Positions 1 through 44,534 of a DNA stretch of 44,534 bases are shown here, one piece after another; position 1 is the first letter of the stretch; each line of letters opens with the position of its first letter. The stretch lies in IMG/VR virus record IMGVR_UViG_2734482570_000015. The stretch is one strand, 5' to 3'. This stretch comes from a virus (taxonomy: Duplodnaviria > Heunggongvirae > Uroviricota > Caudoviricetes). Under the pieces are notes generated by a model. It had not been told where the DNA came from and did not search any database. It saw only the letters and a program-made list of their open reading frames with translations. The translations under genes and the position numbers were made by a program.

Positions 1-3968
<3,968 letters not shown>

Positions 3969-4028
3969 TCCTCACGCTCCATAAACGACAAAACCGCCCG
4001 CAGGCGGTTTCTCATAAAACATTTTGCA

Positions 4029-5317: not shown

Positions 5318-5322
5318 GGGAT

Positions 5323-6021: not shown

Positions 6022-6359
6022 CAGATCACCACTTCGTCAAACTGACACGAAAAATCGGTATAGGTGATATGTTCTGTCGCTGACCACGTTCGACACACCA
6101 CTCTGATTTTTCTGTTAATACCCGGCGGGCGCCAAAAAAAAGATTTATAGCCTTCATGCCGGGCTAAAAATTTTTCAAATGAATCACGTTCATTCGCCTC
6201 AACTTTGAAATCACAGGTGAAAACGCGCAGAGAATGATTAAGTCCATTTGGACTTCGTTGCTCATAACCATCACCAAATCTTACAGTTTTTATCGATGGT
6301 TTATTTTCTGTTTTCATTCCATCCTCTGGTAACCAGTGAAATTCTTCCGTATTAGCCAC
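6021..6359 (-). CDS. M: Minor tail protein M
   Basis: 112 aa with VRFGDGYEQRSP and FFWRPP motifs resembling lambda gpM; sits between tape measure and L. Confidence 0.8.
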   Translation of the reverse strand: MANTEEFHWLPEDGMKTENKPSIKTVRFGDGYEQRSPNGLNHSLRVFTCDFKVEANERDSFEKFLARHEGYKSFFWRPPGINRKIRVVCRTWSATEHITYTDFSCQFDEVVI

Positions 6360-9300: not shown

Positions 9301-9585
9301 TTCATATTCTTCTTTATCAATAAGCCCTTTATCGAAAAATTTCTTTAATTCAGAATAGCGTCGACCGACAGTATCAATTGCGGCACCAACTGGATCAATA
9401 GCTGCTTTTAATTTTGCGAGCGCGTTCTTCTCATCTTCTGTTGCCTTAGTCACTTTCCCTGCGCTATTTGCAGCAGTTTCCCCAGCCTGCGTCATTTTGA
9501 CTAATGAGGAGGTCAGATTGTCAGCATTATTTTTCGCTCCAGTGCTATCAATAATTATTGCGAGACGCGAGGTTTGCTCTGCCAT
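6352..9585 (-). CDS. Tail tape measure protein, read as one frame but interrupted by a single in-frame TAG at 8146-8148
   Basis: ORF 8146-9585 (479 aa, coiled-coil rich with hydrophobic segment [30 protein letters not shown]) and ORF 6352-8106 (584 aa) are in the same frame. The 39 nt between them translate without a stop ([14 protein letters not shown]). Together they would make about 1077 aa. Confidence 0.8.
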
Positions 9586-9606
9586 TTATTAAAACTCCTG
9601 ACAACA

Positions 9607-9630
9607 AAAAACCCACCGCGAAGTGGGTTT
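9607..9630 (-). terminator. Rho-independent terminator between the G-T chaperone gene and the tape measure gene
   Basis: Minus strand reads AAACCCAC-ttcgcg-GTGGGTTT followed by a T-run (8-bp stem, 6-nt loop). Confidence 0.55.
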
Positions 9631-9750
9631 CAGGCGACATAATAGTAGATATAGCGATTACGAGGCCACGCAATGCTTTTCTCCAGGAGCATCATCGATT
9701 TAATTAAAGACACCATCACATCTCTGTAACAGAGTGTACGTAATTAACAA

Positions 9751-10520
9751 CTACACACACTGCTCCTGAAAATACTGGTCATCCAGTGCAAAGATCACTG
9801 CTTCAAATTCATCGCGCTCAATCAATACCGGATGAGTGGCTAAATATTCATTTATCTCTGTCAGAGATAAAGGCAAAGGCACCCCAGCCATTCCAGCATA
9901 ACGTCGGGCACGGGATATTACCGAATAGGCGTACAACAACTCCTTAAGCACCGGGTCTATTTCTGGTTCCGGTATCGGTGGCAACCTGAGTTTTTCTCGC
10001 TTCCATCTTGCCTTTTCCCCCCTTTCTCCCCCGAACTCCGATAACCACCGCTGGGCAGCTATGGCTTTTTTATCGTATCCTGCTTCTGCTGCTCTTTACC
10101 CTGGGCGATGCTGGCTGCTTCTGCAAGGATCTGCCAGTACAACTCTGGATTCTGCTTAAGCAGCGCGATCCCTCGTTCTGCCGTATATTCCAGTGCAACC
10201 TCAACACCATTAACCAGTTCACCAACCCCTTTCCAGTCTTTCAGCAGATAACGAGCGGCATTATCAATGAGTAAATCATCAACAGAATCCACCTCGGAAA
10301 CCTTTGAAATATCAAACTCCTTCGTTCCGACGTGCAAACTGGCATCCATTTTCTCAATGTGGCGACGGATTAATGCATTACGGGAGCGATACTGATCGTT
10401 ATCGCTGCTTGCCACCAACAGTTTTAACCCGTCTACAGGTTTTAAGTCCTTCATTGGCGTAAACCAGCGTTCTCCACCAATGATAATTTTCTGATTAAGA
10501 ATAAACATCCATAACCTCAT
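9751..10520 (-). CDS. Tail assembly chaperone G-T fusion made by -1 programmed frameshift
   Basis: The -1 frame is open from the slippery heptamer through ORF 9751-9984 (which the ORF track begins at a TTG): ...KKAIAAQRWLSEFGGERGEKARWKREKLRLPPIPEPE... Confidence 0.65.
10059..10520 (-). CDS. Tail assembly chaperone (gpG-like)
   Basis: 153-aa ORF immediately upstream of the tape measure gene; ends ...KEQQKQDTIKKP with a slippery site two codons before the stop. Confidence 0.75.
   Translation of the reverse strand: MRLWMFILNQKIIIGGERWFTPMKDLKPVDGLKLLVASSDNDQYRSRNALIRRHIEKMDASLHVGTKEFDISKVSEVDSVDDLLIDNAARYLLKDWKGVGELVNGVEVALEYTAERGIALLKQNPELYWQILAEAASIAQGKEQQKQDTIKKP
10065..10071 (-). promoter_or_regulatory. 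-1 ribosomal frameshift slippery heptamer A AAA AAG
   Basis: Minus strand reads gat acg ata aaa aag cca tag; zero-frame codons AAA AAG preceded by A, the canonical X XXY YYZ form, two codons before the G stop. Confidence 0.65.
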
Positions 10521-10568
10521 TCAATGCGTCCCCCTGTAGGGCAGTACCACAGGAGGAATAACGGAAAA

Positions 10569-11531
10569 TCAACTAATCGCCTCAGCACTGGCTTTTGCGA
10601 TCACGGCAGCCGGGGAATTTTTTTTTCTGGTTATCGTAGGTGCTTCATCTGCTGCGGTAATGCTCAATTGAACCTGGATAATGTCGCTATTACCCCCATC
10701 AGGCCATTCACCTGACACCTGAACCTTCGGGAAACTGAAAGTGTATGCCCCCTCTCCATTCGAAAGCGTGAAGCTGAACGGAACTGTTTCTCCAGTCAGT
10801 GTTTTACTCCAGATTTCCCACGCGGCTTTAGACCATGAAAGCGTCACCGTACCGGACGGTGTAAAAGTAGTCGGAATATTTGCTCCTGCATAAGGCGAGC
10901 CAGTCCCGATACAACGCTGTGTCTGGAGTTTGTTATCGAACTGAATATCAAAACTGTCGATACAAAAACCGTTACCTCCGGCAACACCATTCAGGCTTAC
11001 TGCTGAAACCTCCTTAAACGAATAACGTAGCTTTCCTGCACTATCCACAGGTTCGCCTTTGATAAAATTCGTATCATCGGCCTTTGATTCCCAGTCCAGT
11101 CCGGCAAAGGTTACGGTCGCTGTAATATCGCCGTCGTTAGGGATCTGCATTTTCCATGAGCCAACCTGCGCTCCTCTGACGACAGAGGCAATTCCGACAT
11201 CGGACGCATAGGTCGCCAGAGAAAATGTTATTCGCTCATTCCCCATTGTCAGAGAATCGCCTGACCATTCCGCGCCGAAACAGGATGCAAGAAAATCATC
11301 ATGTTGACCCCAGCGAAATTTGGTACCAACATCACCGCCGACATCCACAGTGCCAGGCGTCGCCCCCTGAGCCATCCGGGAGCCACCAATCTCATTATTT
11401 TCGCCTTTATTCTGGGTGGGTTTTACTCCCCAGCTTGTGCGTTTTAATAAACTCCAGTCACCACTTGCTGGCGTAGTGCCTGCAACCGTCTCCCGGATAA
11501 ATGCCGAGATAACCTTTGCACCTGAACTCAC
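10569..11531 (-). CDS. Major tail (tube) protein with C-terminal Ig-like extension
   Basis: 320 aa; position between the tail terminator and the G/G-T chaperone; Ser/Thr/Gly-rich beta-type sequence typical of tail tube proteins. Confidence 0.65.
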   Translation of the reverse strand: MSSGAKVISAFIRETVAGTTPASGDWSLLKRTSWGVKPTQNKGENNEIGGSRMAQGATPGTVDVGGDVGTKFRWGQHDDFLASCFGAEWSGDSLTMGNERITFSLATYASDVGIASVVRGAQVGSWKMQIPNDGDITATVTFAGLDWESKADDTNFIKGEPVDSAGKLRYSFKEVSAVSLNGVAGGNGFCIDSFDIQFDNKLQTQRCIGTGSPYAGANIPTTFTPSGTVTLSWSKAAWEIWSKTLTGETVPFSFTLSNGEGAYTFSFPKVQVSGEWPDGGNSDIIQVQLSITAADEAPTITRKKNSPAAVIAKASAEAIS

Positions 11532-11557
11532 AGGAGCCTCCTATGTCATTAATTGCG

Positions 11558-11950
11558 CTAGAGCGCGCGATATGGAATTTGAAGATTAAGCTGGAACCAG
11601 CCATTCTTTTCGCCAACGGCTATTGAGGAAACAGCCTGGTAACTGAGACGATCGTCATCCTGAAACTCAAACAGTTCCCGCAATTTATCGGCTGTCTCAG
11701 TAATGAGTTTTGAACCAGAACCTGCGGGGACAAATAACTGAATAATGATTATCCCCGTGCGATAAACAACCGGCCCCGCGCCAATTTCATTAACTCCAGC
11801 CTGCCCGGGAATATTACTTAACCGCGCCCAGATTAACTTACCGGAAGGATCGAACGTTGGCCCGTTCGGATACAATACGTCTTTTCCATCAATAATCGTC
11901 TGTGCCGTCATTCTGGAAATAACCGTATTTCTGATTTCAGTAAACTTCAT
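11558..11950 (-). CDS. Tail terminator / tail completion protein (gpU-like)
   Basis: 130-aa ORF directly upstream of the major tail gene; assignment by synteny. Confidence 0.5.
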   Translation of the reverse strand: MKFTEIRNTVISRMTAQTIIDGKDVLYPNGPTFDPSGKLIWARLSNIPGQAGVNEIGAGPVVYRTGIIIIQLFVPAGSGSKLITETADKLRELFEFQDDDRLSYQAVSSIAVGEKNGWFQLNLQIPYRAL

Positions 11951-12327
11951 TTGTAAGCCTGTAAAACACCATGAAAAGCGTTGGCATACACGCCAGTTGG
12001 CGCTTGTTGTGAATGACCGTTTTCAAGAGCCTCTGCATAAGGAAGGTTATTCTGGATATAAATAACCCCGTAATTTGCAGCTTTCGAAATAACCCCGATC
12101 CCACGCTGAACAGCAATCGTACCGTTCGGATCCACGTTATCAGATATACCAAAATCGGGATGCTGTAACGACACCAGGTTGTTATTTCTGAAACGTCCGG
12201 TATCAACCGGAGCAGCAATATCAATAGCAGTAAGAATCTGCATAGCGATGTAGCGAATCTTCAGCCCTACATCTTCCTCAATCATCCCGGCAAATATTGA
12301 CGGTTCTATATCCCATGCCTTTGCCAT
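11947..12327 (-). CDS. Neck / tail component protein (HK97 gp10-like or Z-like)
   Basis: 126-aa ORF; start overlaps the stop of the upstream gene (translational coupling); assignment by synteny. Confidence 0.45.
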   Translation of the reverse strand: MAKAWDIEPSIFAGMIEEDVGLKIRYIAMQILTAIDIAAPVDTGRFRNNNLVSLQHPDFGISDNVDPNGTIAVQRGIGVISKAANYGVIYIQNNLPYAEALENGHSQQAPTGVYANAFHGVLQAYK

Positions 12328-12711
12328 TTACGCTCTCCTTAACTGGATAGAGTAAACTGATGCGGAAGGATCTACACTTGCTGTAATTACCTCGTATCGT
12401 TGTAACTGCCTTGATACAGGATCATAAATCTCAATAATATGGTCGACAGCTGGTTTATCCGTAACCTCGCATACCAGAGCGGTTAATTTAAGGTCACCAT
12501 GCAAAATATTAATCCCATCAATTCTGCCCAGCTTATAACGTGTCAACACGCCTCGCCCGGTATAGATTGCGGTGGATTCGCCGCCAGTTTCCGTCACAGG
12601 ATCCCAGTGCCGGTGCGTAACGTAAGAACCAGAAAAATCACTCACGGCGTCCGCTAAATCCTCATCAAAAGCAGCGGCAACCTCTGACTGAATCTCTTCA
12701 CGAAGCCCCAT
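12328..12711 (-). CDS. Head-tail joining (head closure) protein
   Basis: 127 aa; synteny within the neck module. Confidence 0.45.
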   Translation of the reverse strand: MGLREEIQSEVAAAFDEDLADAVSDFSGSYVTHRHWDPVTETGGESTAIYTGRGVLTRYKLGRIDGINILHGDLKLTALVCEVTDKPAVDHIIEIYDPVSRQLQRYEVITASVDPSASVYSIQLRRA

Positions 12712-13106
12712 TATCCCCCCCTCACAACCCTGACTTGTGAGCGACTAAGTCCGTACGGTTTCAGCAGTGCTATCGCAAGCTGTAAATCGGGTTCAAGCAA
12801 TGCAGTGCTGTTTGCTGGCAACTCAGAAAATGATTTCGATACACTGACCCCGTCAGCCGACACGGCTTTACTGATAACAACGCCAGAATCATTTTTCTGC
12901 TGAAACAACTTACCGAATGAGGCAATTCTGGCTGCATATGCTCCCGCAAGTTTTACCTCTTCCGGAATACGGGATGGGTTAATTTTCAGGTTGAAGCCAT
13001 TAAGCCAGGCATTAGCCATTAAAACAGCTTTATTTTTAGCGTTCTCACTCGTCCAGGCGTTCCCAAACGCATTATCAACGTCATCACAGGTCACGTAAGT
13101 GATCAT
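12711..13106 (-). CDS. Head-tail connector / adaptor protein
   Basis: 131 aa; synteny; 1-nt overlap with the downstream gene. Confidence 0.45.
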   Translation of the reverse strand: MITYVTCDDVDNAFGNAWTSENAKNKAVLMANAWLNGFNLKINPSRIPEEVKLAGAYAARIASFGKLFQQKNDSGVVISKAVSADGVSVSKSFSELPANSTALLEPDLQLAIALLKPYGLSRSQVRVVRGG

Positions 13107-13109
13107 GTG

Positions 13110-13286
13110 TTACTCCTGAGTTTTCCAGCCCATAGCCTTCCAGTTGTCAACTTCATCAGGATGAACATTAGCGATAGTTGGTGCGCCGGGAAACATCTGA
13201 TAATCGGTCACCATAACCACTAACTCAATTTGCGTTTTTTGTGCGGCTTCACGCTGTGCTCTTTGCTCTTTAGTTAATCCGGCCAT
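13110..13286 (-). CDS. Small hypothetical protein (58 aa), below the ORF-track size cutoff
   Basis: Hand translation gives MAGLTKEQRAQREAAQKTQIELVVMVTDYQMFPGAPTIANVHPDEVDNWKAMGWKTQE. ATG is preceded by GGGGGG; the stop lies 3 nt before the next gene's ATG. Confidence 0.45.
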   Translation of the reverse strand: MAGLTKEQRAQREAAQKTQIELVVMVTDYQMFPGAPTIANVHPDEVDNWKAMGWKTQE

Positions 13287-13295
13287 ATGCCCCCC

Positions 13296-13319
13296 ATTAA
13301 AAATGGGGCCGAAGCCCCG
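13296..13319 (-). terminator. Rho-independent terminator just downstream of the major capsid gene
   Basis: Minus strand reads GGGGC-TTCG-GCCCC followed by ATTTTTAAT (GC stem with TTCG tetraloop). Confidence 0.7.
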
Positions 13320-13328
13320 TTTGAATGT

Positions 13329-14468
13329 TTAACCAAGAATCAGACAACCATGTGCCGGCTTCACTGATGAAACACCCCATGCCAGTCCAACTTCATAGCG
13401 CACCTGGCGATACTGACGATACAGTGCAATCTGGAACGTAATCCCTGAAATCGGGTCCGTAACATTCATTACATCATCAGCATTATCGCCACCTTCCGGC
13501 ATTGCCGGAGTACGGGATGCCAGCAGAAACGCGTTGCGATCAAACGCCATATTTGCAGTAAAGGCCCCAACAACTGTGATGGCAGTATCATCGGCCAGAT
13601 CCTGACGCAGTCCGGGCGCTGCAAGAGTAATCAGATTGCTGGTCGCTGCTGCCACAACATACTGATTCGGATCACCAGCGAACGTAACAATCTGACCTGC
13701 AGAAATACTCCCCGAACCAGTATCAATGGAAATAAGAACATCGCCTTCTTTTTTCTCTCCATTCACGAGATAACCAGTTGCAGCAACCTTTGGCGCTCGT
13801 TTCACACCTGCCGAACTGTGAATATTGAATCCCTCCAGACGCCCCAACACGCCCTCACGCAGTAGCTGTTCAGTGCCGGATTCATTCACTTTAAACAATA
13901 CAGACTGTTTTCCGCGCAAATTAGCAATGGCAGTGGAGCCAAGCACCATCTGCAGATCGGTTGTCGGTGCGCCGTTATCCTCCAGAACCTGACGAGCCAG
14001 AGCAGCATCAGAAAGATCATCTTTAACACCAAACGGCGTTGTCCCTGCGGTTCCCACGGCGCGGGAAGCACCGAAATACAACGCACCAAGATCAGCCTCA
14101 ACCTCGTTTGCAAGGGCGCGAAAAGCCTGCTTGAACTGATCAGCCAGAATGGTGTTGTAAGTCCCTGAAGGGCCAAGAGCCAGTTGTTCTTCACCATTCC
14201 ATTTAACCGGTGCCATTTTGGATTTAGTAATTTTTACATCAACAGTGCCAATATTTTGATCACCGGTATTCGGAGCTGACGGCCCCGGTACGATATCTTC
14301 GGTTTTCGCCTCAGGCGCAACTGGCGCGGTTACCGTCTGATCTTTTGCTGCGGCGTCAGCTTTTGCGTTTTTTGCTACCGCAGGGATAAAACCTACCTGC
14401 TCACGGGATACAACATCCAGGGCGGTATAAATAGTCGGGATCAACCCGGTCAGGGTATTTCCAGCCAT
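13329..14468 (-). CDS. Major capsid protein
   Basis: 379 aa from the internal ATG (MAGNTLTGLIPTIYTALDVV), which has an upstream AGGAATAT Shine-Dalgarno-like sequence. Sits downstream of the scaffold gene and is followed by a strong terminator. Confidence 0.7.
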   Translation of the reverse strand: MAGNTLTGLIPTIYTALDVVSREQVGFIPAVAKNAKADAAAKDQTVTAPVAPEAKTEDIVPGPSAPNTGDQNIGTVDVKITKSKMAPVKWNGEEQLALGPSGTYNTILADQFKQAFRALANEVEADLGALYFGASRAVGTAGTTPFGVKDDLSDAALARQVLEDNGAPTTDLQMVLGSTAIANLRGKQSVLFKVNESGTEQLLREGVLGRLEGFNIHSSAGVKRAPKVAATGYLVNGEKKEGDVLISIDTGSGSISAGQIVTFAGDPNQYVVAAATSNLITLAAPGLRQDLADDTAITVVGAFTANMAFDRNAFLLASRTPAMPEGGDNADDVMNVTDPISGITFQIALYRQYRQVRYEVGLAWGVSSVKPAHGCLILG

Positions 14469-14566
14469 AATTAAATATTCCTTAAAAATTTGCGTAATTG
14501 TGAATAGATGGAGTAATGAGCTATCCAGCCCTGACACCAGCTCCCATCCGGAAGCTGACAAATGTG

Positions 14567-15331
14567 TTAATCAACGATTGTGATACCGTCTTTCAATGCG
14601 TTTTGCTTACCTGCAACATCCAGTGCATCAAAAGCAGAGCGTTTCATCGTTTTCTGACCAATATCATGCTGTGTCGGACGGGAGCCGCCGCCATTGTTGC
14701 CACTGGCTTTCAGGATGTAGTCTTTCTGAGGGTAATTTTCGACAAGGAACTCCAGCGCCTCATCAAACTGCGCCAGTTCGCCAGGCTTCGCGCGGGAATA
14801 AATTTTGTTGCCGGAAGCGTCATAAGCAACGATCCTCCCTTCTTCCACTTTGAATGCCTGCCCGAAGCGGGCTTGTAATAAATCTGCCGGGATCGCAATT
14901 TTATCGGCAATATATTTTGAACCCGCAAAACTACCGCCAATCATAGAATCGTAAAGCTGCTTCTCCAGCATCTGAGAGCGTTGCTTTTCTTCATCTAATT
15001 GCTGCTGAAAATTTTTCGTAATTTCTGCCTTAACCTGGTCAACCTGTCCCGCATCGAGCAGCTTTTTCTGGTCGATTTTTGACAGCATTTCCAGTGCCTC
15101 GATCGCCTTCTTCGGGTCTTCGATAGCGGCAAACTTAGCCAGTTTTTCCTCTGCAGCTTCTTTAGCCAGGCGATGATTTTTTGCCTCGCCATTAAGCTCT
15201 GTAATTTTTTTTGTCGCCAGCGGTGCATCGAAGCCAATTTCTTTACCATCGTCGTGCACATAAACTGGCAGGCCAGCAGTATCAATTTCTGCGTATTGTT
15301 TTCCGTTAATCTCGACCGTTTTCAGTTTCAT
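14567..15331 (-). CDS. Head scaffolding protein
   Basis: Charged, predicted coiled-coil ORF (AKEAAEEKLAKFAAIEDPKKAIEALEMLSKIDQKKL); likely start MKLKTVEINGKQ; lies between the morphogenesis and capsid genes. Confidence 0.55.
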   Translation of the reverse strand: MKLKTVEINGKQYAEIDTAGLPVYVHDDGKEIGFDAPLATKKITELNGEAKNHRLAKEAAEEKLAKFAAIEDPKKAIEALEMLSKIDQKKLLDAGQVDQVKAEITKNFQQQLDEEKQRSQMLEKQLYDSMIGGSFAGSKYIADKIAIPADLLQARFGQAFKVEEGRIVAYDASGNKIYSRAKPGELAQFDEALEFLVENYPQKDYILKASGNNGGGSRPTQHDIGQKTMKRSAFDALDVAGKQNALKDGITIVD

Positions 15332-15435
15332 ATTAGTACCTGGTTTAAGTCTTCCGACAGTTACGCTGCTCACCATCCGGATCGCAGCAATAAAAAAGGC
15401 CACCCGAAGGTAGCCTGTTGTAATAAATGATTTAT

Positions 15436-16551
15436 TTAAATCCCTGCTTTTCTGAATACCTGTGCATCACGCTCACGGAGCTGCTTCAGCGTCAGCCATT
15501 CGCCTTTATCGGTGTAAAATTCATCTGGCGACATACCACCATCCCGAATCAGCTTTGCTCGGCTTTCCCCCACAATCTGTTTTTGTCTGGTGTAAGGCTG
15601 ACGCAAAAACCATTCCCTGTAGGTTGTATCTCCGGCCACCACGCCATCCATGCTGGCCCGCTCAGCCGGGGAAATATCGCGAACATCAATACCCAGTTCC
15701 TTCGCTGATTTCAGAATGAACGTTTCCGTTGAGCGGCAGCAGAAATGAATTTTTCCCGGCCCCTGCAAATAAGGCACGCTGTGACCTACAGGTTTATTAT
15801 TCAGCGTATATTTGAGGCGATCCCTGATTCGACATTGTGGCGTAGTACGATTATCAAGCGTTGATAACCATTGCTTACCCTTAATCAAATCATTATTCGC
15901 GCTGGCAAAACTCTCACGGGCAGTAGCAGCAAGATGTCCAACCGCTGTTTTTGCAATGCTGGCCGCATTAGCCCGGCTCATCTGCAATGCACCATCCTGA
16001 AATCCCTTACTGACATGTCCCCGAATTTTTCTTGCGATCTGCTCATTGGTATCCCCCAGCAAAAAACCCTGACGCACTGTATTTGTTATGCGTCTGAGCC
16101 GATCCGCCTCAAGATCTGAGGCCCACTCACTGAGCAGTCGTCCCTGGAATGGTCGCGCCATTGCAGCGGCATAAAGTGCATCAGGAGAGATACCAACCAG
16201 AGGGTGAACATCAGCAACAAAATCAGGTAGCATAGAATCAAACAGACTTAACTGATAACCAGCCTCATAAATTGCCAGCTCGTTCAGCTCTCCGGAGAGA
16301 CTGGTAAACATGCTGTTAATAGCAGTGCGGTTAACCTCTCTGACGCTCGCCAGAAGTGACTCCAGGCGCTTAACGGTAAAACTACCTGGATCGAGGCTGT
16401 CCAGTGCTATCAGCAGGCGAGCAGTAAGTTCCGCATCGCTGTCATTCAGTATTTTCACCATTCTGGCAGCCACGCCAGTGCTATAGCGGGATATCCAGAC
16501 TGCATGAGCAATTGATTCATCACGCAGCCGTTCATTCACGGTTTGCATCAT
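15436..16551 (-). CDS. Head morphogenesis protein (Mu gpF / SPP1 gp7-like minor head protein)
   Basis: 371 aa; directly downstream of and overlapping the portal gene; family assignment from memory. Confidence 0.6.
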   Translation of the reverse strand: MMQTVNERLRDESIAHAVWISRYSTGVAARMVKILNDSDAELTARLLIALDSLDPGSFTVKRLESLLASVREVNRTAINSMFTSLSGELNELAIYEAGYQLSLFDSMLPDFVADVHPLVGISPDALYAAAMARPFQGRLLSEWASDLEADRLRRITNTVRQGFLLGDTNEQIARKIRGHVSKGFQDGALQMSRANAASIAKTAVGHLAATARESFASANNDLIKGKQWLSTLDNRTTPQCRIRDRLKYTLNNKPVGHSVPYLQGPGKIHFCCRSTETFILKSAKELGIDVRDISPAERASMDGVVAGDTTYREWFLRQPYTRQKQIVGESRAKLIRDGGMSPDEFYTDKGEWLTLKQLRERDAQVFRKAGI

Positions 16552-17938
16552 TGATTTCCATCAGCATTACACTCTGATTTTTTAATTCATCGATCACTTC
16601 CTCTGGACGGGAATCCTGATCGATAAATTTCAACGCCTGCAACACCCGAACCGCATCAATCTGACGTATATCACCGCCCTGACGCAATGACTGAACAGCC
16701 AGCGCGGAGGATGAGTCAAACACCTGGGCAGATACATCCAGTTCAGTGCGCACATCCACATTGCCACCGCAACTCTCTCCGATCCATTCCGCCATTATCT
16801 GGAGAATATTATCGAGGGCATCTTCGAGGGAGTTCGCCATTGTATAAAGCGGCGAGTTTTCCTGCATTCGCTCTTCATTAGTCTGATCAACAGATTTGGT
16901 GGATGTATTTTCAGCACGCAGAAGTTTAGCGCCGGCATGACGCATCTGATTTTCCAGCTTCTCAAGTGATGTTTCGCCAGATTCTATCGCTGCGCCACTA
17001 TGTTCAACATATTCGAGGCCATTTTTTGTTCTGTCCTCAAAAATCGTAGCGGTGGATGCACCAACCGTCAGTTCTTCATTCCTGTCCAGCCCGTAGGCCA
17101 CCAGCAATGGAACGCGGGCAACATGAAGAATATTGTCCTGCTCGCTCTGGCTTTGCCAGTGCTTGATATTCAGCAAGCCAAGATTAAGCAATGGCGGTGT
17201 ACCACGCATAAATCCTGTTTTCTTCGTGTACAGTGTTACCAGAGGAATATCATCACGGCTGGTATTCCATGACTCATGAAGCGTCCAGACAGATTCGCCA
17301 TTAGTGCCTTCGCTACGTCGATAAATTTCAACTCGACGGGGCATAATATGGCGGATCTGCTCCACCTTCTTCTGCCCGAAATCATCACCATCAATAATGA
17401 TGACCTCTTTTATACGCAAATCAGTGAGAACAACTTTCCCTTTTTCAACTTTCGATTTCCATCCAATAACCTGGCGTGGATTCAGCATCGTAACGTACGG
17501 ACGACCACCGGTCGCGTTTTCATCGGCTTTTGTCCGAATCTCTTTCATATCCGTTCGTGGATAGTCCACCAGCGCATGTGCCACACCATACTGAAATGCG
17601 AGGCTGAAAAATTGCTGCGCCCACACATCCAGTCGGCTCCCCTCCATGTCGATATTTTCTGCATATTCCCTGATTTTTGCCGGCGTTTCCTCACTCAATA
17701 CTGTCGGCTCTGCAAATATGCGCCCAATATTTTGCTTGATGCTTTCTTCATACACAGGAAGTAGCGTAGCCACAGACAGGCGTTTTTTATAAGCGTCTTC
17801 ATCTTCGTTAGGCCATTTTGGGAGATAATTTTCCCCCTGCCTGCGCATTTCAAGCGTACCGCCCATCAGTGCGTCGTTAATATCCCACGCCTCCAGCATA
17901 TCGTTATAGTCGAGGTTGGGTGTTGATATATCAGCCAT
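16532..17938 (-). CDS. Portal protein
   Basis: 468 aa, immediately downstream of the terminase large subunit gene. Confidence 0.7.
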   Translation of the reverse strand: MADISTPNLDYNDMLEAWDINDALMGGTLEMRRQGENYLPKWPNEDEDAYKKRLSVATLLPVYEESIKQNIGRIFAEPTVLSEETPAKIREYAENIDMEGSRLDVWAQQFFSLAFQYGVAHALVDYPRTDMKEIRTKADENATGGRPYVTMLNPRQVIGWKSKVEKGKVVLTDLRIKEVIIIDGDDFGQKKVEQIRHIMPRRVEIYRRSEGTNGESVWTLHESWNTSRDDIPLVTLYTKKTGFMRGTPPLLNLGLLNIKHWQSQSEQDNILHVARVPLLVAYGLDRNEELTVGASTATIFEDRTKNGLEYVEHSGAAIESGETSLEKLENQMRHAGAKLLRAENTSTKSVDQTNEERMQENSPLYTMANSLEDALDNILQIMAEWIGESCGGNVDVRTELDVSAQVFDSSSALAVQSLRQGGDIRQIDAVRVLQALKFIDQDSRPEEVIDELKNQSVMLMEINDANRE

Positions 17939-17940
17939 AA

Positions 17941-19251
17941 TTAAATCCGAAGTGATGTGACTCTTCCGGTCGGTTTGACAATAGGGAATTGCTTAACGAT
18001 GAAATAACCTCCGGCATCATTCGGGTGATCATTGCCAGATTTTTTATCAGGCTCCCCCTTCTCATCCCAGACCTGTTGCTCCAGAGATTCGGCATATAAC
18101 GGGCAACGCTTCACATTAACTTTATAGCGACGCTCACCATTGGCATTGCAGAACATTGCATTCATTGAGTTAACGCGATCTTTTACTGGCGGGTTCGAGC
18201 TGTTCACCACAACGTTAAAACCAGCCTGCTTAAGCTGGGCTATATCCGTCGTACTTGCGTTACTTGATTTTCTGGAATCCCCGGAAGCATCTGGATAAAT
18301 ATAAATTTCCCTCACTTTCCGGTAATCATTCCCATCATACAGCCAGAAGCGTTCTTTAATGATGCGGATCATATCCGGCGTATCGTAGGCATTGATGATT
18401 TCAGTTACCGCACATGGAAGCCCCAAACGCAGCACATGGACGATTCCCGCCATCTTTCCAACGTTAAAATCCATCCCAATATAAATCGGCTCCCCTGGCT
18501 GCTCCACTTCTTCGCAATTATTCAGTTTCCGGTCAAACTGATGGTAAACAGTACCACTTGTCAGGTTAGTAAACTGTCCTCGAAGATAGGCTTTAATCAG
18601 CTCTGGAGGGTATGATTCAAGAAGCGAAGGAATGTAATCTGCTGGCAGGTTCTTTTCATTATCGAAAGTAGATGCCTGCACCAGACCATACAGTGAGGCC
18701 AGCTCTGTTTTTTCACGCACGGCTTTAACAAACTGCTCGTAGACAAATTTGAATCCTTCCGGCGTGGTTGTAACGTCAATACCGTTGCGAAGTCCATCAA
18801 TCTTATAACGCATACGTGCAATTATCTTGCGCCACGCCGTTCTGGCTTTTTCCTTCGGCAAAATGTCCAGTTCATCCACCAACGCATTACCAATTTTGAA
18901 ACCGACGATCGTTTGTGGCTTCTCCATCGATCTGCAGATAGTGGTTCCCCGATACTGGCGTCCGTAATAAAAGTGAACCTCTTTATTTCCCTCATTAATT
19001 TTTACGTTCAATCCCCAGTCAGCAGCAACTTCTTCCACTGTAGGGTAAAAAATATCGCGAATTTGGGGATACGTTGGCGCAAAATATCCCTGATTTATAC
19101 CTGGATGCTCCCAAATCCCCTTGCATATGCCGCCACACCCAACCCATGTTTTGCCCGAGCCAAAACCAGCAATATAGGCTTTAAATTTATGGGGCATTGA
19201 AAGAAATCGCGCCTGAGGCACATTAAGCGTCGGAGAGATCATCTTCATCAC
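17941..19251 (-). CDS. Terminase large subunit
   Basis: 436 aa with Walker A-like GFGSGKT near the N-terminus and acidic motifs (LVDELD, IGMDFN). Confidence 0.8.
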   Translation of the reverse strand: MMKMISPTLNVPQARFLSMPHKFKAYIAGFGSGKTWVGCGGICKGIWEHPGINQGYFAPTYPQIRDIFYPTVEEVAADWGLNVKINEGNKEVHFYYGRQYRGTTICRSMEKPQTIVGFKIGNALVDELDILPKEKARTAWRKIIARMRYKIDGLRNGIDVTTTPEGFKFVYEQFVKAVREKTELASLYGLVQASTFDNEKNLPADYIPSLLESYPPELIKAYLRGQFTNLTSGTVYHQFDRKLNNCEEVEQPGEPIYIGMDFNVGKMAGIVHVLRLGLPCAVTEIINAYDTPDMIRIIKERFWLYDGNDYRKVREIYIYPDASGDSRKSSNASTTDIAQLKQAGFNVVVNSSNPPVKDRVNSMNAMFCNANGERRYKVNVKRCPLYAESLEQQVWDEKGEPDKKSGNDHPNDAGGYFIVKQFPIVKPTGRVTSLRI

Positions 19252-20317
19252 TCCTTACTCTGGCATCAACCACATTAATATTGATCGCCACAGGCTGGGG
19301 ATGTTCATTATCTTCCACCGTTTCGATCTCTTTGCGCAGCTTCTGGTTTTCCATTCTGCGCCGTTCAATTTCCAGTTCCCGTAGCCGCTTATCTGCACAT
19401 AAAGCCCCGCCAGCAGAAAACAAACGCAACAATTCACGCCGGGCGGCAGCCTTATCCTCCAGCAGGATCTCAACGCCGAATTTTCCGAATTTTGCCCCTG
19501 CATATAATTGCCGCGCATCCCCATCAAGCAGAGTGGTATCAGCCATATAAAGCTGTCCCGTTCCCTCACCGCAGCACTTCGGGCAGTCCGGATTGGGTAT
19601 GGCGTTATCAACAAAGCCGAGGCCTCCATATTCCGGTTCGGGTTTGCCATCTCTGGAAGCCTGCGCCGCTGCCTTGTCGAATTCTGCTATATCGCGCCAC
19701 TGGTAGAGATGATTCTCGCCCCAGCAATAACGGCAGTTAACACGGCGAAATTGTGCAAGCTGATTGGGGTCGGCCAGGACAATAGCCATCAACTGACTCA
19801 CTAGTAAATCCAGGTCTGCGGTATAGCGTTTCTGGTACTGATTGCGGAAGTAGCTGATAGCGCGAAAAACCCTGGCATTTCTAAGCATACGACTGGCGTT
19901 GCTGTTAGCTGTCGCACCTTGCCCCTCATAACCGGCTAGTCGGTACGCCTCTGTCGGCTTTTTACCCTGAGCAACAAGCATCGCAAACTTAGCCTGCTGG
20001 TCAGAAATGCCGAATTCATCGGGACAGAACGAAAATTCCTCCGCGTCGCCCTCATTCAGGCCCGCATCGAATACTGGCTTTTTTTCCTGAGATTTTTCGT
20101 TCCGCTTTTGTGCAGTCTGCGCAGATTTTTTCTGCGCACTTTTTTGCGCAGTTTTGCACATTTCTGTCTGCGCATTTTTCGGAGTTTTTTTGATGTAACG
20201 ACGGGCTGTTGCGTAATTCAGTCCCCTTGCTTCACACCATGCCACCGGAGATATACCGGAGCGGGTGTATTCAGCAATATACTCCTGCTGCAACGCCCCC
20301 CAGTCCGGTCTGCTCAT
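19223..20317 (-). CDS. Terminase small subunit (putative; N-terminal HTH, C-terminal Cys cluster)
   Basis: 364 aa; N-terminal HTH-like segment (GISPVAWCEARGLNYATARRYIKK); overlaps the start of the terminase large subunit gene. Confidence 0.6.
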   Translation of the reverse strand: MSRPDWGALQQEYIAEYTRSGISPVAWCEARGLNYATARRYIKKTPKNAQTEMCKTAQKSAQKKSAQTAQKRNEKSQEKKPVFDAGLNEGDAEEFSFCPDEFGISDQQAKFAMLVAQGKKPTEAYRLAGYEGQGATANSNASRMLRNARVFRAISYFRNQYQKRYTADLDLLVSQLMAIVLADPNQLAQFRRVNCRYCWGENHLYQWRDIAEFDKAAAQASRDGKPEPEYGGLGFVDNAIPNPDCPKCCGEGTGQLYMADTTLLDGDARQLYAGAKFGKFGVEILLEDKAAARRELLRLFSAGGALCADKRLRELEIERRRMENQKLRKEIETVEDNEHPQPVAININVVDARVRSDEDDLSDA

Positions 20318-22358: not shown

Positions 22359-23816
22359 TTAGGAGCGCCAAAAAAAACCTGAAAACAATATAATAACAGG
22401 ATAAATTTCAAGGCGACCAAGAATCATAGCTATGCACATTAAATATTTTGCAATGTCATTAAGCACTCCGAATGACGATGCAGTAGCCCCAAAACCTAAT
22501 CCCATATTATTAATACATGCAGCCACTGTTGCAAATGATGTAAGAAAATCATATCCCATACCATTTAACACCAGTATAAAAAACACCGTGAAGAGAGTAT
22601 AAAGAAAAAAGAAACTCCATACAGACCTCATTACACGATCTGTAACTATCTTCCCTCCTACATTTACACTCAACAACGCTCTGGGATGAGAAAGCTGATT
22701 TATCTCGTGTTTGCTTTGTTTGAAAAGTATAAGAAATCGAAGTGACTTAATTCCACCACAGGTTGAACCTATACATCCCCCAAAGAAACTTGACAACAGC
22801 AAAAACACTATCGTGTGCGTGGGCCAGTTTGCATAATCCTGCGTAGCTAAACCATTATCAGTGAGCATGGAGCTGGCAAGAAAAAACGAATGAATAAAAC
22901 TTCCATGCAAGTCATACATACCTATATGCCAGACCTGGAAAGAGGTAACAATGATCACCCCTAAGGCTATTAACAGAAAGAAACGAAGTTCAATATCTCT
23001 GATTAAAGGTTTTATCGTTTTTCTGCTAATAACAATATACCAAAGAGTGAAGTTGAAAGCCGATAGCAGGGAAAAAGAACCAGCCACCAGCTCAACCAAA
23101 TAGTTATTAAAATATCCGATACTCTCGCTATGAGTTGAGAAACCACCAAGCGAAACTGTGGAAATCCCGTGACAAATAGCATCAAACAAAGGCATTCCTG
23201 CAAGTCTATAACAGACAATACAAGCAATACCTAATAAAGAATAAGTTATCCACAGTGTCCGTGACGTATCGGCCAGGCGGGGAGTGAGTTTGTCATCCTT
23301 AAATGGCCCCGGCATTTCTGACTGATAAAGCTTTGCACCACCAATACCCAATAATGGCAATACTGCAACCGCCAGAACAATAACTCCTAAACCACCTATA
23401 AAATTTAACTGTGACCGATAGTACAAATATGCCCGAGGTAATGAACTAACATCATCAATTACAGTTGCTCCTGTTGTTGTTATTCCAGAAACCCCTTCAA
23501 ACAGAGCATCAATGAACGTTAAATTAAGTTCTGAGTCAATCCATAAAGGGAATGCACTAATAACAGAAAACAAAATCCAAAACATTACAATTATAATAAA
23601 CCCATCACGGGTACGTAATTGAATGCCAGATTTCTTAGTTGTATACCACGCTCCGCCACCAATGCAAAAAAATATAACGAAAGTTATAAAGAAAACGAAC
23701 AGGCTTTTTTCTTTATAAAACAATGCTACAACCATTGGTGGCAACATTGAAAGACTATAGAGCCAAACCAGGAACCCACACATATGAGTAACAACTCTTA
23801 CATGAGATGTATTCAT
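22359..23816 (-). CDS. trkG: TrkG potassium uptake protein (TrkH/TrkG family); low-GC moron inside the late region
   Basis: 485 aa from MNTSHVRVVTHMCGFLVWLY; multi-pass membrane protein. trkG is a known Rac prophage gene in K-12. Gene and upstream region are visibly AT-rich. Confidence 0.85.
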   Translation of the reverse strand: MNTSHVRVVTHMCGFLVWLYSLSMLPPMVVALFYKEKSLFVFFITFVIFFCIGGGAWYTTKKSGIQLRTRDGFIIIVMFWILFSVISAFPLWIDSELNLTFIDALFEGVSGITTTGATVIDDVSSLPRAYLYYRSQLNFIGGLGVIVLAVAVLPLLGIGGAKLYQSEMPGPFKDDKLTPRLADTSRTLWITYSLLGIACIVCYRLAGMPLFDAICHGISTVSLGGFSTHSESIGYFNNYLVELVAGSFSLLSAFNFTLWYIVISRKTIKPLIRDIELRFFLLIALGVIIVTSFQVWHIGMYDLHGSFIHSFFLASSMLTDNGLATQDYANWPTHTIVFLLLSSFFGGCIGSTCGGIKSLRFLILFKQSKHEINQLSHPRALLSVNVGGKIVTDRVMRSVWSFFFLYTLFTVFFILVLNGMGYDFLTSFATVAACINNMGLGFGATASSFGVLNDIAKYLMCIAMILGRLEIYPVIILFSGFFWRS

Positions 23817-23953
23817 ATCTAAATATTCTTTCAATTATAACCACCTTGCTGCAATATTATGATTATACTGTATAAAATTTAACTCCTCTTAGATCTTACT
23901 TCACTGTTCCTTATGAAACAATCATCAAAATGAATCATATTGTAGTTAAGATT

Positions 23954-39148: not shown

Positions 39149-41749
39149 ATGAGCACAAAACCACTCTTCCTGTTACGGAAAGCGAAAAAATCATCCGGTG
39201 AACCTGACGTCGTCCTGTGGGCAAGCAACGATTTTGAATCGACCTGTGCCACTCTGGACTACCTGATCGTTAAGTCAGGTAAAAAACTGAGCAGCTATTT
39301 TAAAGCTGTTGCCACGAATTTTCCTGTCGTTAATGACCTGCCCGCTGAAGGTGAGATCGATTTTACCTGGAGTGAACGCTATCAACTCAGCAAAGACTCC
39401 ATGACATGGGAACTAAAACCGGGAGCAGCACCAGACAACGCTCACTATCAAGGCAATACCAACGTCAACGGCGAAGACATGACTGAGATTGAGGAGAATA
39501 TGCTACTCCCAATTTCTGGCCAGGAACTGCCCATTCGTTGGCTTGCTCAACACGGCAGCGAAAAACCGGTAACGCACGTTTCACGCGACGGACTCCAGGC
39601 ATTACACATTGCTCGGGCTGAAGAACTACCGGCTGTTACTGCCCTGGCTGTTTCCCACAAAACCAGCCTGCTCGACCCGCTGGAAATTCGCGAACTCAAC
39701 AAACTGGTTCGTGACACTGACAAAGTTTTCCCTAATCCTGGTAATTCAAACCTGGGACTGATAACTGCTTTTTTCGAAGCATACCTGAACGCTGACTACA
39801 CCGATCGAGGACTGCTGACAAAAGAGTGGATGAAGGGTAATCGTGTTTCACACATCACTCGCACGGCTTCCGGTGCTAATGCTGGCGGCGGAAACCTCAC
39901 CGATCGCGGCGAAGGTTTCGTACACGATCTGACGTCACTGGCGCGGGACGTAGCCACTGGCGTACTGGCCCGTTCAATGGATCTGGACATCTATAACCTT
40001 CATCCGGCACACGCTAAACGCATTGAGGAAATTATCGCTGAAAATAAACCGCCCTTTTCTGTTTTCCGCGACAAATTCATCACCATGCCTGGCGGGCTGG
40101 ATTATTCCCGCGCCATCGTGGTTGCGTCCGTAAAAGAAGCACCAATTGGGATCGAGGTCATCCCCGCGCACGTCACTGAATATCTGAACAAAGTACTGAC
40201 TGAAACCGATCATGCCAACCCTGATCCGGAAATCGTGGATATTGCCTGCGGTCGCTCCTCTGCCCCGATGCCGCAGCGAGTAACAGAAGAAGGAAAACAG
40301 GATGATGAAGAAAAACCGCAACCATCTGGAACAACGGCAGTTGAACAGGGAGAGGCTGAAACAATGGAACCGGACGCAACTGAACATCATCAGGACACGC
40401 AGCCGCTGGATGCTCAGTCACAGGTAAATTCTGTTGATGCGAAATATCAGGAACTGCGGGCAGAACTCCATGAAGCCCGGAAAAACATTCCATCAAAAAA
40501 TCCTGTCGATGCCGATAAATTGCTTGCTGCATCACGTGGTGAATTTGTTGACGGAATTAGCGACCCGAACGATCCGAAATGGGTAAAGGGGATCCAGACT
40601 CGCGATTGTGTGTACCAGAACCAGCCAGAAACGGAAAAAACCAGCCCGGATATGAATCAACCTGAGCCAGTAGTGCAACAGGAACCGGAAATAGCCTGCA
40701 ATGCCTGCGGCCAGACTGGCGGGGATAACTGCCCTGACTGTGGTGCGGTGATGGGCGACGCAACATACCAGGAAACATTCGATGAAGAGAGTCAGGTTGA
40801 AGCTAAGGAAAATGATCCGGAGGAAATGGAAGGCGCTGAACATCCGCACAATGAGAATGCTGGCAGCGATCCGCATCGCGATTGCAGTGATGAAACTGGC
40901 GAAGTCGCAGATCCCGTAATCGTAGAAGACATAGAGCCAGGTATTTATTACGGAATTTCGAATGAGAATTACCACGCGGGTCCCGGTGTCAGTAAGTCTC
41001 AGCTCGATGACATTGCTGATACTCCGGCACTGTATTTGTGGCGTAAAAATGCCCCCGTGGACACCACAAAGACAAAAACGCTCGATTTAGGAACCGCTTT
41101 CCACTGCCGGGTACTTGAGCCGGAAGAATTCAGTAACCGCTTTATCGTAGCACCTGAATTTAACCGCCGGACAAACTCCGGAAAAGAAGAAGAGAAAGCG
41201 TTTCTGAGGGAATGCGCAAGCACAGGAAAAACGGTTATCACTGCCGAAGAAGGCCGGAAAATTGAACTCATGTATCAGAGCGTTATGGCTTTGCCGCTGG
41301 GGCAATGGCTTGTTGAAAGCGCCGGACACGCTGAATCATCAATTTACTGGGAAGATCCTGAAACAGCAATTTTGTGTCGGTGCCGTCCGGACAAAATTAT
41401 CCCTGAATTTCACTGGATCATGGACGTGAAAACTACGGCGGATATTCAACGATTCAAAACCGCTTATTACGACTACCGCTATCACGTTCAGGATGCATTC
41501 TACAGTGACGGTTATGAAGCACAGTTTGGAGTGCAGCCAACTTTCGTTTTTCTGGTTGCCAGCACAACTATTGAATGCGGACGTTATCCGGTTGAAATTT
41601 TCATGATGGGCGAAGAAGCAAAACTGGCAGGTCAGCTGGAATATCACCGCAATCTGCGAACCCTGGCTGACTGCCTCAATACCGATGAATGGCCAGCTAT
41701 TAAGACGTTATCACTGCCCCGCTGGGCTAAGGAATATGCAAATGACTAA
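39149..41749 (+). CDS. recE: RecE (exonuclease VIII), full length
   Basis: 866 aa, the K-12 RecE length; begins [30 protein letters not shown]; 8-nt overlap with recT. Confidence 0.9.
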
Positions 41750-42551
41750 GCAACCACCAATCGCAAAAGCCGATCTGCAAAAAACTCAGGGAAACCGTGC
41801 ACCAGCAGCAATTAAAAATAACGACGTGATTAGTTTTATTAACCAGCCATCAATGAAAGAGCAACTGGCAGCAGCTCTTCCACGCCATATGACGGCTGAA
41901 CGTATGATCCGTATCGCCACCACAGAAATTCGTAAAGTTCCGGCGTTAGGAAACTGTGACACTATGAGTTTTGTCAGTGCAATCGTACAGTGTTCACAGC
42001 TCGGACTTGAGCCCGGTAGCGCCCTCGGTCATGCATATTTACTGCCTTTTGGTAATAAAAACGAAAAGAGCGGTAAAAAAAACGTTCAGCTAATCATTGG
42101 CTATCGCGGCATGATTGATCTGGCTCGCCGTTCAGGTCAAATCGCCAGCCTGTCAGCCCGTGTTGTCCGTGAAGGTGACGAGTTTAATTTCGAATTTGGC
42201 CTTGATGAAAAGTTAATACACCGCCCAGGAGAAAACGAAGATGCCCCTGTTACCCACGTCTATGCTGTCGCAAGACTGAAAGACGGAGGTACTCAGTTTG
42301 AAGTTATGACGCGCAAACAGATTGAGCTGGTGCGCAGCCAGAGTAAAGCTGGTAATAACGGGCCGTGGGTAACTCACTGGGAAGAAATGGCAAAGAAAAC
42401 GGCTATTCGTCGCCTGTTCAAATATCTGCCCGTATCAATTGAGATCCAGCGTGCAGTATCAATGGATGAAAAGGAACCACTGACAATCGATCCTGCAGAT
42501 TCCTCTGTATTAACCGGGGAATACAGTGTAATCGATAATTCAGAGGAATAA
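41742..42551 (+). CDS. recT: RecT single-strand annealing protein
   Basis: 269 aa from [32 protein letters not shown]; start overlaps the recE stop. Confidence 0.9.
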
Positions 42552-42606
42552 TTCAGCCTGGCGGTGTAATGCACCGCCAACTTGAAATATTTTTATGAGA
42601 AAAATT

Positions 42607-42756
42607 ATGAGATATGACAATGTTAAACCATGTCCATTTTGTGGTTGTCCATCAGTAACGGTGAAAGCCATTTCAGGATATTACCGAGCGAAGTGTAACG
42701 GATGCGAATCCCGAACCGGTTATGGTGGAAGTGAAAAAGAAGCACTCGAACGATGA
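42607..42756 (+). CDS. ralR: RalR / Lar-family protein, truncated at codon 50 by an in-frame TGA; the frame stays open for 14 more codons to 42801
   Basis: MRYDNVKPCPFCGCPSVTVKAISGYYRAKCNGCESRTGYGGSEKEALER, then TGA, then NKRTTGNNNGGVHV and TAA, which overlaps the ydaC start as ATGTATAA. Read-through length would be 64 aa, the K-12 RalR length as recalled. Confidence 0.6.
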   Translation: MRYDNVKPCPFCGCPSVTVKAISGYYRAKCNGCESRTGYGGSEKEALER

Positions 42757-42793
42757 AATAAACGAACCACTGGAAATAATAATGGAGGTGTTC

Positions 42794-42982
42794 ATGTATA
42801 AAATTACCGCCACTATTGAAAAGGAAGGTGGCACTCCTACTAACTGGACAAGATATTCAAAATCTAAACTAACGAAATCAGAATGCGAAAAAATGCTCTC
42901 AGGTAAAAAAGAAGCAGGCGTTTCCAGAGAGCAGAAAGTAAAACTGATAAATTTTAATTGCGAGAAACTTCAGTCCTCGTGA
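42794..42982 (+). CDS. ydaC: YdaC (small Rac protein)
   Basis: 62 aa beginning MYKITATIEKEGGTPTNWTRYSKSKL; lies between ralR and xis as in K-12 Rac. Confidence 0.6.
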   Translation: MYKITATIEKEGGTPTNWTRYSKSKLTKSECEKMLSGKKEAGVSREQKVKLINFNCEKLQSS

Positions 42983-43081
42983 ATTGCATTGTATTCAAAT
43001 TAAAACTTCATAGCTGATTATTAATAATCAACATCGGGCGTCAATTTAAGTCTAACATTGGCGCCTGCCAGAGGTGATGCG

Positions 43082-43297
43082 ATGGCACAAGTAATCTTTA
43101 ATGAAGAGTGGATGGTTGAATACGGCCTGATGCTTCGCACTGGTCTGGGGGCCAGACAAATTGAAGCATACCGCCAGAACTGTTGGGTGGAAGGCTTCCA
43201 CTTCAAACGAGTATCTCCTTTAGGGAAGCCAGACAGTAAGCGAGGGATTATCTGGTATAACTATCCAAAGATAAATCAGTTTATCAAAGACTCATGA
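43082..43297 (+). CDS. xisR: Excisionase
   Basis: 71 aa beginning [32 protein letters not shown]; immediately upstream of the integrase gene. Confidence 0.75.
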
Positions 43298-43298
43298 T

Positions 43299-44534
43299 AT
43301 GTCTAAATTACCAACAGGTGTCGAGATTCGAGGTAAATACATTCGCATCTGGTTCATGTTTCGAGGAAAACGATGTCGGGAAACATTGAAAGGCTGGGAG
43401 GTTACTAACAGTAACATTAAAAAAGCCGGGAATTTAAGAGCGTTGATAGTTCATGAAATCAATTCCGGTGAGTTTGAGTATTTAAGACGTTTTCCCCAGT
43501 CCAGCACTGGGGCAAAAATGGTGACAACGAGGGTCATAAAAACGTTCGGGGAGCTTTGTGATATCTGGACAAAAATTAAAGAAACAGAGTTAACAACAAA
43601 CACAATGAAGAAAACGAAATCACAATTAAAAACACTCAGGATAATAATTTGTGAGAGTACTCCGATATCGCATATTCGTTATAGCGATATCTTAAACTAC
43701 CGGAATGAACTGCTGCATGGAGAAACGCTTTACCTGGATAATCCAAGATCCAACAAAAAAGGAAGAACCGTGCGCACAGTTGATAACTATATCGCCCTGC
43801 TCTGTTCGTTGTTACGTTTTGCGTATCAGTCGGGATTTATATCAACCAAACCATTTGAAGGAGTAAAGAAATTACAGAGAAACAGAATAAAGCCTGACCC
43901 GTTATCTAAAACAGAATTCAATGCATTAATGGAAAGTGAAAAAGGACAGAGCCAGAACTTGTGGAAATTTGCCGTATACTCCGGGCTTCGTCACGGGGAA
44001 CTGGCTGCTCTGGCGTGGGAGGATGTGGATTTCGAGAAGGGAGTTGTGAATGTCAGAAGAAACCTGACGATACTGGATATGTTCGGTCCCCCAAAAACAA
44101 ATGCGGGGATCCGGACGGTAACACTACTGCAGCCTGCTCTTGAAGCACTGAAGGAGCAATACAAACTGACCGGGCATCATCGCAAAAGCGAAATCACTTT
44201 TTATCATCGGGAGTACGGCAGAACCGAAAAGCAAAAACTGCATTTTGTTTTCATGCCCAGAGTGTGTAACGGAAAACAGAAACCTTATTACTCGGTAAGC
44301 AGTTTGGGTGCGAGATGGAATGCAGCAGTAAAACGTGCTGGTATTCGCCGCCGTAATCCGTACCATACGCGGCATACTTTTGCCTGCTGGCTGTTGACGG
44401 CAGGAGCGAACCCGGCGTTTATAGCCAGCCAGATGGGGCATGAAACTGCGCAGATGGTGTATGAAATTTACGGTATGTGGATTGATGACATGAACGACGA
44501 ACAGGTAGCCATGTTGAATGCGCGGTTATCGTAG
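43299..44534 (+). CDS. intR: Tyrosine integrase IntR
   Basis: 411 aa with C-terminal catalytic residues (HTRHTFACWLL...MGHETAQMVYEIY); stop codon at the window end. Confidence 0.9.
   Translation: MSKLPTGVEIRGKYIRIWFMFRGKRCRETLKGWEVTNSNIKKAGNLRALIVHEINSGEFEYLRRFPQSSTGAKMVTTRVIKTFGELCDIWTKIKETELTTNTMKKTKSQLKTLRIIICESTPISHIRYSDILNYRNELLHGETLYLDNPRSNKKGRTVRTVDNYIALLCSLLRFAYQSGFISTKPFEGVKKLQRNRIKPDPLSKTEFNALMESEKGQSQNLWKFAVYSGLRHGELAALAWEDVDFEKGVVNVRRNLTILDMFGPPKTNAGIRTVTLLQPALEALKEQYKLTGHHRKSEITFYHREYGRTEKQKLHFVFMPRVCNGKQKPYYSVSSLGARWNAAVKRAGIRRRNPYHTRHTFACWLLTAGANPAFIASQMGHETAQMVYEIYGMWIDDMNDEQVAMLNARLS

Follow-up and report, generated by a model that had tools for sequence, protein, structure and literature searches.

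A premature stop codon that probably inactivates the toxin gene ralR circulates among Rac prophages of Escherichia coli

Introduction

RalR, a Lar-family zinc-ribbon protein of the Rac prophage, is the DNase toxin of the RalR/RalA type I toxin–antitoxin (TA) pair and also a restriction-alleviation protein. We describe here its gene in a 44,534-nucleotide (nt) stretch of viral DNA (Caudoviricetes; IMG/VR record IMGVR_UViG_2734482570_000015), the whole of which is referred to as the window. The gene lies at the right end of a prophage of the Rac type. According to the annotation of genomes identical to the window here, recE (39149–41749) and recT (41742–42551) are followed by ralR, rcbA/ydaC, xisR (43082–43297) and intR (43299–44534), with ttcA just beyond in matching genomes. 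The ralR frame lies on the plus strand at 42607–42756 and, read directly from the window, continues from its ATG at 42607 as MRYDNVKPCPFCGCPSVTVKAISGYYRAKCNGCESRTGYGGSEKEALER, ending in a TGA after 49 codons.

Results

A premature stop at codon 50 of ralR

The TGA occupies codon 50 (42754–42756, plus strand), and the next base is A. Past it the same frame runs on for 14 codons, NKRTTGNNNGGVHV, to a TAA at 42799–42801 that overlaps the start of rcbA/ydaC (ATG at 42794–42796), the junction reading ATGTATAA. In K-12, ralR is annotated at 64 codons, and alignment places AGA TGG where the window reads CGA TGA. The segment at 42757–42801 (plus strand) corresponds to the former C-terminus of RalR; it codes for Asn51, Lys52 and Arg53 of a W-N-x-R motif and is now untranslated. 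An open frame of 14 codons is unremarkable by chance, with a probability of about 0.5 ((61/64)^14), and it carries weight here because it is base for base the same as the K-12 tail. A preliminary description made from the letters had placed the in-frame TGA at this codon, followed by 14 codons and a TAA overlapping the ydaC start, and had given 64 residues as the K-12 length with a TGG Trp at this position; the reading of the window and the K-12 alignment bear out all of this.

Over the 448-bp ralR–rcbA interval the window differs from K-12 at four places. There is one T fewer in the T-run at 42590–42594, C for A at 42751 (CGA versus AGA, synonymous at Arg49), A for G at 42756 (TGA versus TGG, Trp50) and T for A at 42980. 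The synonymous Arg49 site tags the haplotype in which the TGA appeared.

Trp50 is the ancestral state

The ralR gene of E. ruysiae is of the K-12 type with 64 codons, and homologues from Salmonella, Citrobacter and a soil metagenome-assembled genome read R-W-N-[KR]-R at the corresponding place. A Lar family profile search of 1.84 billion representative proteins, clustered at 50% identity, returned 2340 members, and an alignment of 213 domains was built from the best 150 of these together with close relatives. Of the 200 domains without a gap at position 50, 199 have Trp there; among the 213, Asn is found at position 51 in 194 and Arg at position 53 in 176. Lar domains mostly end a few residues beyond position 53, and RalR residues 55–64 form a variable tail. 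Because the outgroups and the family alignment keep Trp50, the 49-amino-acid (aa) form is, on this comparative evidence, the derived one. The opposite polarity, with a short ancestor extended by stop loss to the 64 aa of K-12, would find a parallel in the neighbouring rcbA, where the 69-aa K-12 form is the exception and stop loss is the likely direction. For ralR this polarity is refuted, and its probability is close to zero: N-x-R follows a Trp in every outgroup and in 199 of 200 aligned Lar domains, and the TGA is confined to one sub-haplotype.

A single origin and a common allele

Haplotype frequencies were obtained from 5426 complete E. coli genomes with 38-nt queries centred on the two linked single-nucleotide polymorphisms in codons 49 and 50, which the 28-base megablast word renders allele-specific. 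The window haplotype, CGA-TGA, was found in 310 genomes, the K-12 type AGA-TGG in 1510, CGA-TGG in 127 and AGA-TGA in none. About 1922 genomes have the ralR interval, and about one in six of these has the stop. Since AGA-TGA is absent and CGA-TGG is present, the counts indicate that the stop arose once, by a G-to-A transition that would have converted CGA-TGG to CGA-TGA; independent origins are ruled out by the haplotype counts together with the outgroups. The TGG-to-TGA nonsense change proposed in the preliminary description is therefore upheld by the K-12 alignment, the outgroups, the haplotype counts and the Lar alignment alike.

That 42756 is a single-base difference from K-12 is all that would speak for an error of sequencing or assembly. 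Such an error is ruled out, with a residual probability that is negligible, by an identical 38-mer in 310 complete genomes that many laboratories produced on a range of platforms, and the stop is also tied to one particular haplotype.

Carriers of the stop include O157:H7, O55:H7, O26, O111:H8 and O111:H2 strains and unrelated animal isolates. The NCBI annotation pipeline PGAP labels the identical 49-aa coding sequence as RalR in RefSeq (WP_001443846.1), without a pseudogene flag, because its score of 126.9 bits against the NCBIfam RalR equivalog NF007260 clears the cutoff of 113. Homologues that also end at codon 49, which the preliminary description had named as grounds for rejecting its proposal, do therefore exist in the literal sense of this RefSeq entry, but they are the same allele and not independent short homologues.

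What the shortened product keeps and loses

The 49-aa product keeps the zinc-ribbon cysteines C9, C12, C30 and C33 (CxxC...CxxC), whose four columns vary little or not at all in the Lar alignment. It covers positions 1–49 of the 64 of NF007260 and so falls short of a full-length match, whereas the read-through sequence with Trp scores 166 bits. Against Pfam PF14354 it scores 39 bits over profile positions 2–52 of 58, the six lost positions being worth 14.5 bits. The translated product ends at Arg49, and W-N-x-R, the most conserved Lar-family feature in the alignment and still encoded after the stop, is absent from it. For a 64-aa homologue with 92% identity, an AlphaFold2 (AF2) model (mean predicted local distance difference test score, pLDDT, 72) has strands at 17–22, 25–30 and 36–40 and a helix at 43–58. 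Because the modelled helix spans these residues, the stop is predicted to cut the sole helix midway and to remove its second half. A sequence search for a solved Lar structure gave spurious CbpD matches only. Elf1-type zinc ribbons (PDB 9er2_O, 8rap_M) show a weak, generic small-fold likeness from which nothing follows about function, and the comparison recovered no nuclease fold.

Mutagenesis of K-12 RalR bears directly on the missing segment. Among error-prone PCR mutants, changes at residues 14, 37, 39, 49, 51 and 52 lower toxicity, and a Lys52 mutant, once purified, fails to cleave DNA (Guo et al. 2014, PMC4041452). Residues 51 and 52 fall beyond the stop. From the loss of the W-N-x-R motif and the published mutagenesis at 49, 51 and 52 we infer that the 49-aa product has very probably lost DNase toxicity and, probably, restriction alleviation.

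Several points weigh against this inactivation. UGA is the leakiest stop in E. coli and is misread mainly by tRNA-Trp, so that some 64-aa RalR may be made. The stop allele is frequent and occurs in successful lineages, which makes a residual or altered function conceivable, and PGAP, the equivalog cutoff having been cleared, takes the 49-aa form as an intact RalR. No published functional test of the 49-aa product was found in the literature searched, and the DNase activity of RalR itself comes from a single study (PMC4041452).

One reading of these points is that the shortened zinc ribbon keeps a function of its own, such as non-toxic restriction alleviation or interference with other Lar proteins, and is for that reason favoured. 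The zinc-ribbon core and three strands remain, the product exceeds the curated family cutoffs, and the allele is present across several serogroups. We consider such a function unlikely: the lost motif is the family's most conserved feature, changes at residues 51 and 52 lower toxicity, hitch-hiking in a recombining prophage block (see below) explains the spread equally well, and other disrupted ralR alleles, both fusions and a frameshift, circulate as decay predicts.

Read-through of the stop

A 90-nt query spanning 42745–42834 is 100% identical in 312 genomes, essentially all of the carriers. Since the carriers are all identical there, too little time has passed for decay, and on these sequences the intactness of the downstream frame and of the junction is uninformative about selection, constraint or read-through. 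Given this lack of variation, the conserved downstream frame cannot be read as evidence of selection.

The same frame bears on whether the UGA is leaky. In that case tRNA-Trp, the main near-cognate decoder of UGA in E. coli, would read through at a low rate and insert the ancestral residue, and the allele would be a dosage-attenuated ralR yielding a little authentic 64-aa RalR that RalA still restrains. The 14 downstream codons and the TAA are intact and the same as in K-12, and RalA and its pairing sites are retained, all of which such leakage would suit. The tail is invariant, however, simply because the allele is young, and the UGA-A context has no stimulatory structure: no such structure or SECIS (selenocysteine insertion sequence) hairpin after the UGA was found in the fold of 42720–42830 (z-score −1.04). 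Natural isolates, moreover, have an efficient release factor 2 (RF2, Ala246), so that read-through well under 1% is expected. RalR toxicity, in addition, was seen only on over-expression (PMC4041452). Taken together, these considerations leave functional leakage quite unlikely. That traces of authentic RalR are made in carriers, the O157:H7 lineage among them, with the nonsense codon tuning toxin dosage and RalA retained, is very unlikely. Were this so, read-through would turn a DNase that is lethal on induction into a low-dose one, a natural case of dosage tuning by a nonsense codon.

An in-frame UGA with an open frame downstream might also suggest programmed selenocysteine. Here the ancestral codon is Trp and there is no significant hairpin after the UGA, and a selenocysteine codon is effectively refuted.

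RalA and its pairing sites

RalA, the antitoxin small RNA (sRNA), is present at full length on the minus strand at 42800–42978, where it matches all 179 model positions of Rfam RF02694 with 225 bits (gathering score, 170), and has no differences from K-12 over its whole length. It is encoded opposite rcbA/ydaC, not opposite ralR, and works in trans through a 16-nt match to the ralR mRNA (PMC4041452). The preliminary description was thus right that RalA is still there, but not that it lies antisense to ralR. The pairing site within ralR, AAGTGAAAAAGAAGCA (42729–42744, plus strand; repeat D1), has the published sequence (PMC4041452) and lies intact upstream of the stop. Its counterpart within RalA at 42901–42916 reads AGGTAAAAAAGAAGCA on the plus strand and is transcribed from the minus strand, giving an RNA complementary to the ralR site; the two share 11 contiguous identical bases, as published (PMC4041452). 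With both sites and the full RNA in place, RalA would probably be left as an antitoxin without a working toxin.

The best sigma-70-like site in the region (TTGACG, a 16-nt spacer and AATAAT; 10 of 12 matches) lies on the minus strand at 43017–43044. It faces RalA, whose Rfam 5′ end at 42978 lies about 30–40 nt downstream of it.

rcbA and the flanks of ralR

The downstream gene rcbA/ydaC (DUF1187; 42794–42982, plus strand) encodes 62 aa, matches PF06688 over profile positions 1–61 of 61 with 132 bits and is annotated in identical genomes. A GGAGG Shine-Dalgarno sequence, read directly at 42784–42788 (plus strand), stands 5 nt before its ATG. Because rcbA has this site of its own, it should initiate without coupling to ralR translation, and the 38-nt untranslated gap is expected to be too short for a strong polar effect on it.

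The rcbA stop is the TGA at 42980–42982, where K-12 has AGA and runs on to 69 aa. This TGA is shared by E. ruysiae and by O26, O145 and strain L73, and residue 62 is where the DUF1187 profile ends. The 69-aa protein of K-12 thus likely represents a stop-loss extension and not the reference state. A truncation of rcbA in the window was ruled out, the 62-aa form being common and spanning the whole profile. The rcbA stop site sits 2 nt upstream of the Rfam RalA 5′ end.

Upstream of ralR, a GC-rich hairpin (42552–42586, plus strand; inverted repeat I1) lies between recT and ralR and is followed by the T-run at 42590–42594. In the sequences aligned, this T-run has one T fewer than its counterparts in K-12 and E. 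ruysiae and is linked to the TGA haplotype.

The stop in a recombining Rac block

The window and O55:H7 CB9615 are identical over 40988–44534, a stretch in which about 85 sites differ from K-12. Upstream of 40813 the window is K-12-like and O55:H7 is highly divergent. The O26 strain RM10386 is identical to the window over 40554–43047 and K-12-like from 43048 onward. Recombination breakpoints thus fall at 40813–40988, inside recE, and at 42980–43048, and the Rac prophages at ttcA are mosaics. The mosaic flanks imply that recombination among the Rac prophages at ttcA moves the block in which the stop is carried. Judged from these alignments, such a block would suffice to explain the presence of the stop in several phylogroups without selection.

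Other disrupted forms of ralR were met among the E. coli sequences. In the RalR–RcbA fusion P0012, RalR ending in GGSEKEA is joined directly to RcbA beginning GVSREQKVK, apparently the joint expected for a deletion between the two 16-nt direct repeats of RalA pairing. P0015 is a second, different RalR–RcbA fusion, and P0005 is a frameshifted form of ralR. As independent routes of ralR loss, these three would fit a general decay of the gene.

Elsewhere in the window, many long minus-strand open reading frames (ORFs) within positions 1–20000 resemble phage head, tail and terminase genes, and trkG lies at about 22359–23834. The best matches to positions 20000–44534 are non-O157 strains, at 99.9%. 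The closest Rac prophage, that of strain CM2010-0578/1, breaks off at the small terminase subunit and is followed by sitAB and host genes. Because of its head-, tail- and terminase-like ORFs, the Rac-type prophage of the window appears more complete than K-12 Rac.

Discussion

The TGA at codon 50 is best explained as a derived, naturally circulating W50* loss-of-function allele of ralR that has spread by recombination, an explanation in which we have high confidence. In this scheme a G-to-A change in the Trp50 codon would have arisen once on the CGA-Arg49 haplotype, and the allele would then have spread among the Rac prophages of several E. coli lineages within a block comprising the 3′ end of recE, recT, ralR and rcbA. 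Translation would end 15 codons early, giving a 49-aa product that keeps its zinc ribbon. The product would lack the second half of the C-terminal helix, including W-N-x-R, so that toxicity and probably restriction alleviation would be lost. RalA, both 16-nt sites and rcbA with its own Shine-Dalgarno sequence would stay intact, leaving the antitoxin without a working toxin.

The allele shares with K-12 Rac RalR (Guo et al. 2014, PMC4041452; NF007260) the recT–ralR–rcbA–xisR–intR locus by ttcA, the identical protein over residues 1–49, and the same RalA sRNA and 16-nt pairing sites. It is set apart from K-12 by the replacement of W50 with a stop, which gives 49 instead of 64 aa without the W-N-K-R motif and the tail, by the synonymous AGA-to-CGA change at Arg49 and by one T fewer upstream. 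Like other members of the Lar family (PF14354, TIGR03655), the product has a CxxC...CxxC zinc ribbon and exceeds both curated cutoffs; unlike them, it ends before the C-terminal W-N-x-R, which is found in about 99% of aligned domains. Phage lambda Ral, encoded in the lambdoid early region, is a functional analogue in the alleviation of type I restriction (PMC2993543; PMC4041452), although its identity to RalR is only about 24% (PMC4041452). Within the Lar family, the representatives P0028, P0037, P0041 and P0104 carry 4–6 tandem zinc-ribbon domains in 260–370 aa, where the usual form is a single domain of about 55–65 aa.

The allele is already known as sequence, being present and annotated in hundreds of public genomes. 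No paper discussing it was found in our search for literature on a truncated ralR, and a 2025 EcoSal review of restriction–modification (RM) does not mention Lar. It is an ordinary loss-of-function polymorphism, an instance of prophage gene decay that involves no new mechanism, and it matters chiefly as a caution for annotation, given that RefSeq names the product "endodeoxyribonuclease toxin RalR" without a pseudogene flag. TA surveys of O157:H7, O55:H7, O26 and O111 would count a RalR/RalA system that is probably toxin-dead, and the phenotypes attributed to RalR/RalA in K-12, restriction alleviation and fosfomycin tolerance, should not be transferred untested to the carriers of this allele.
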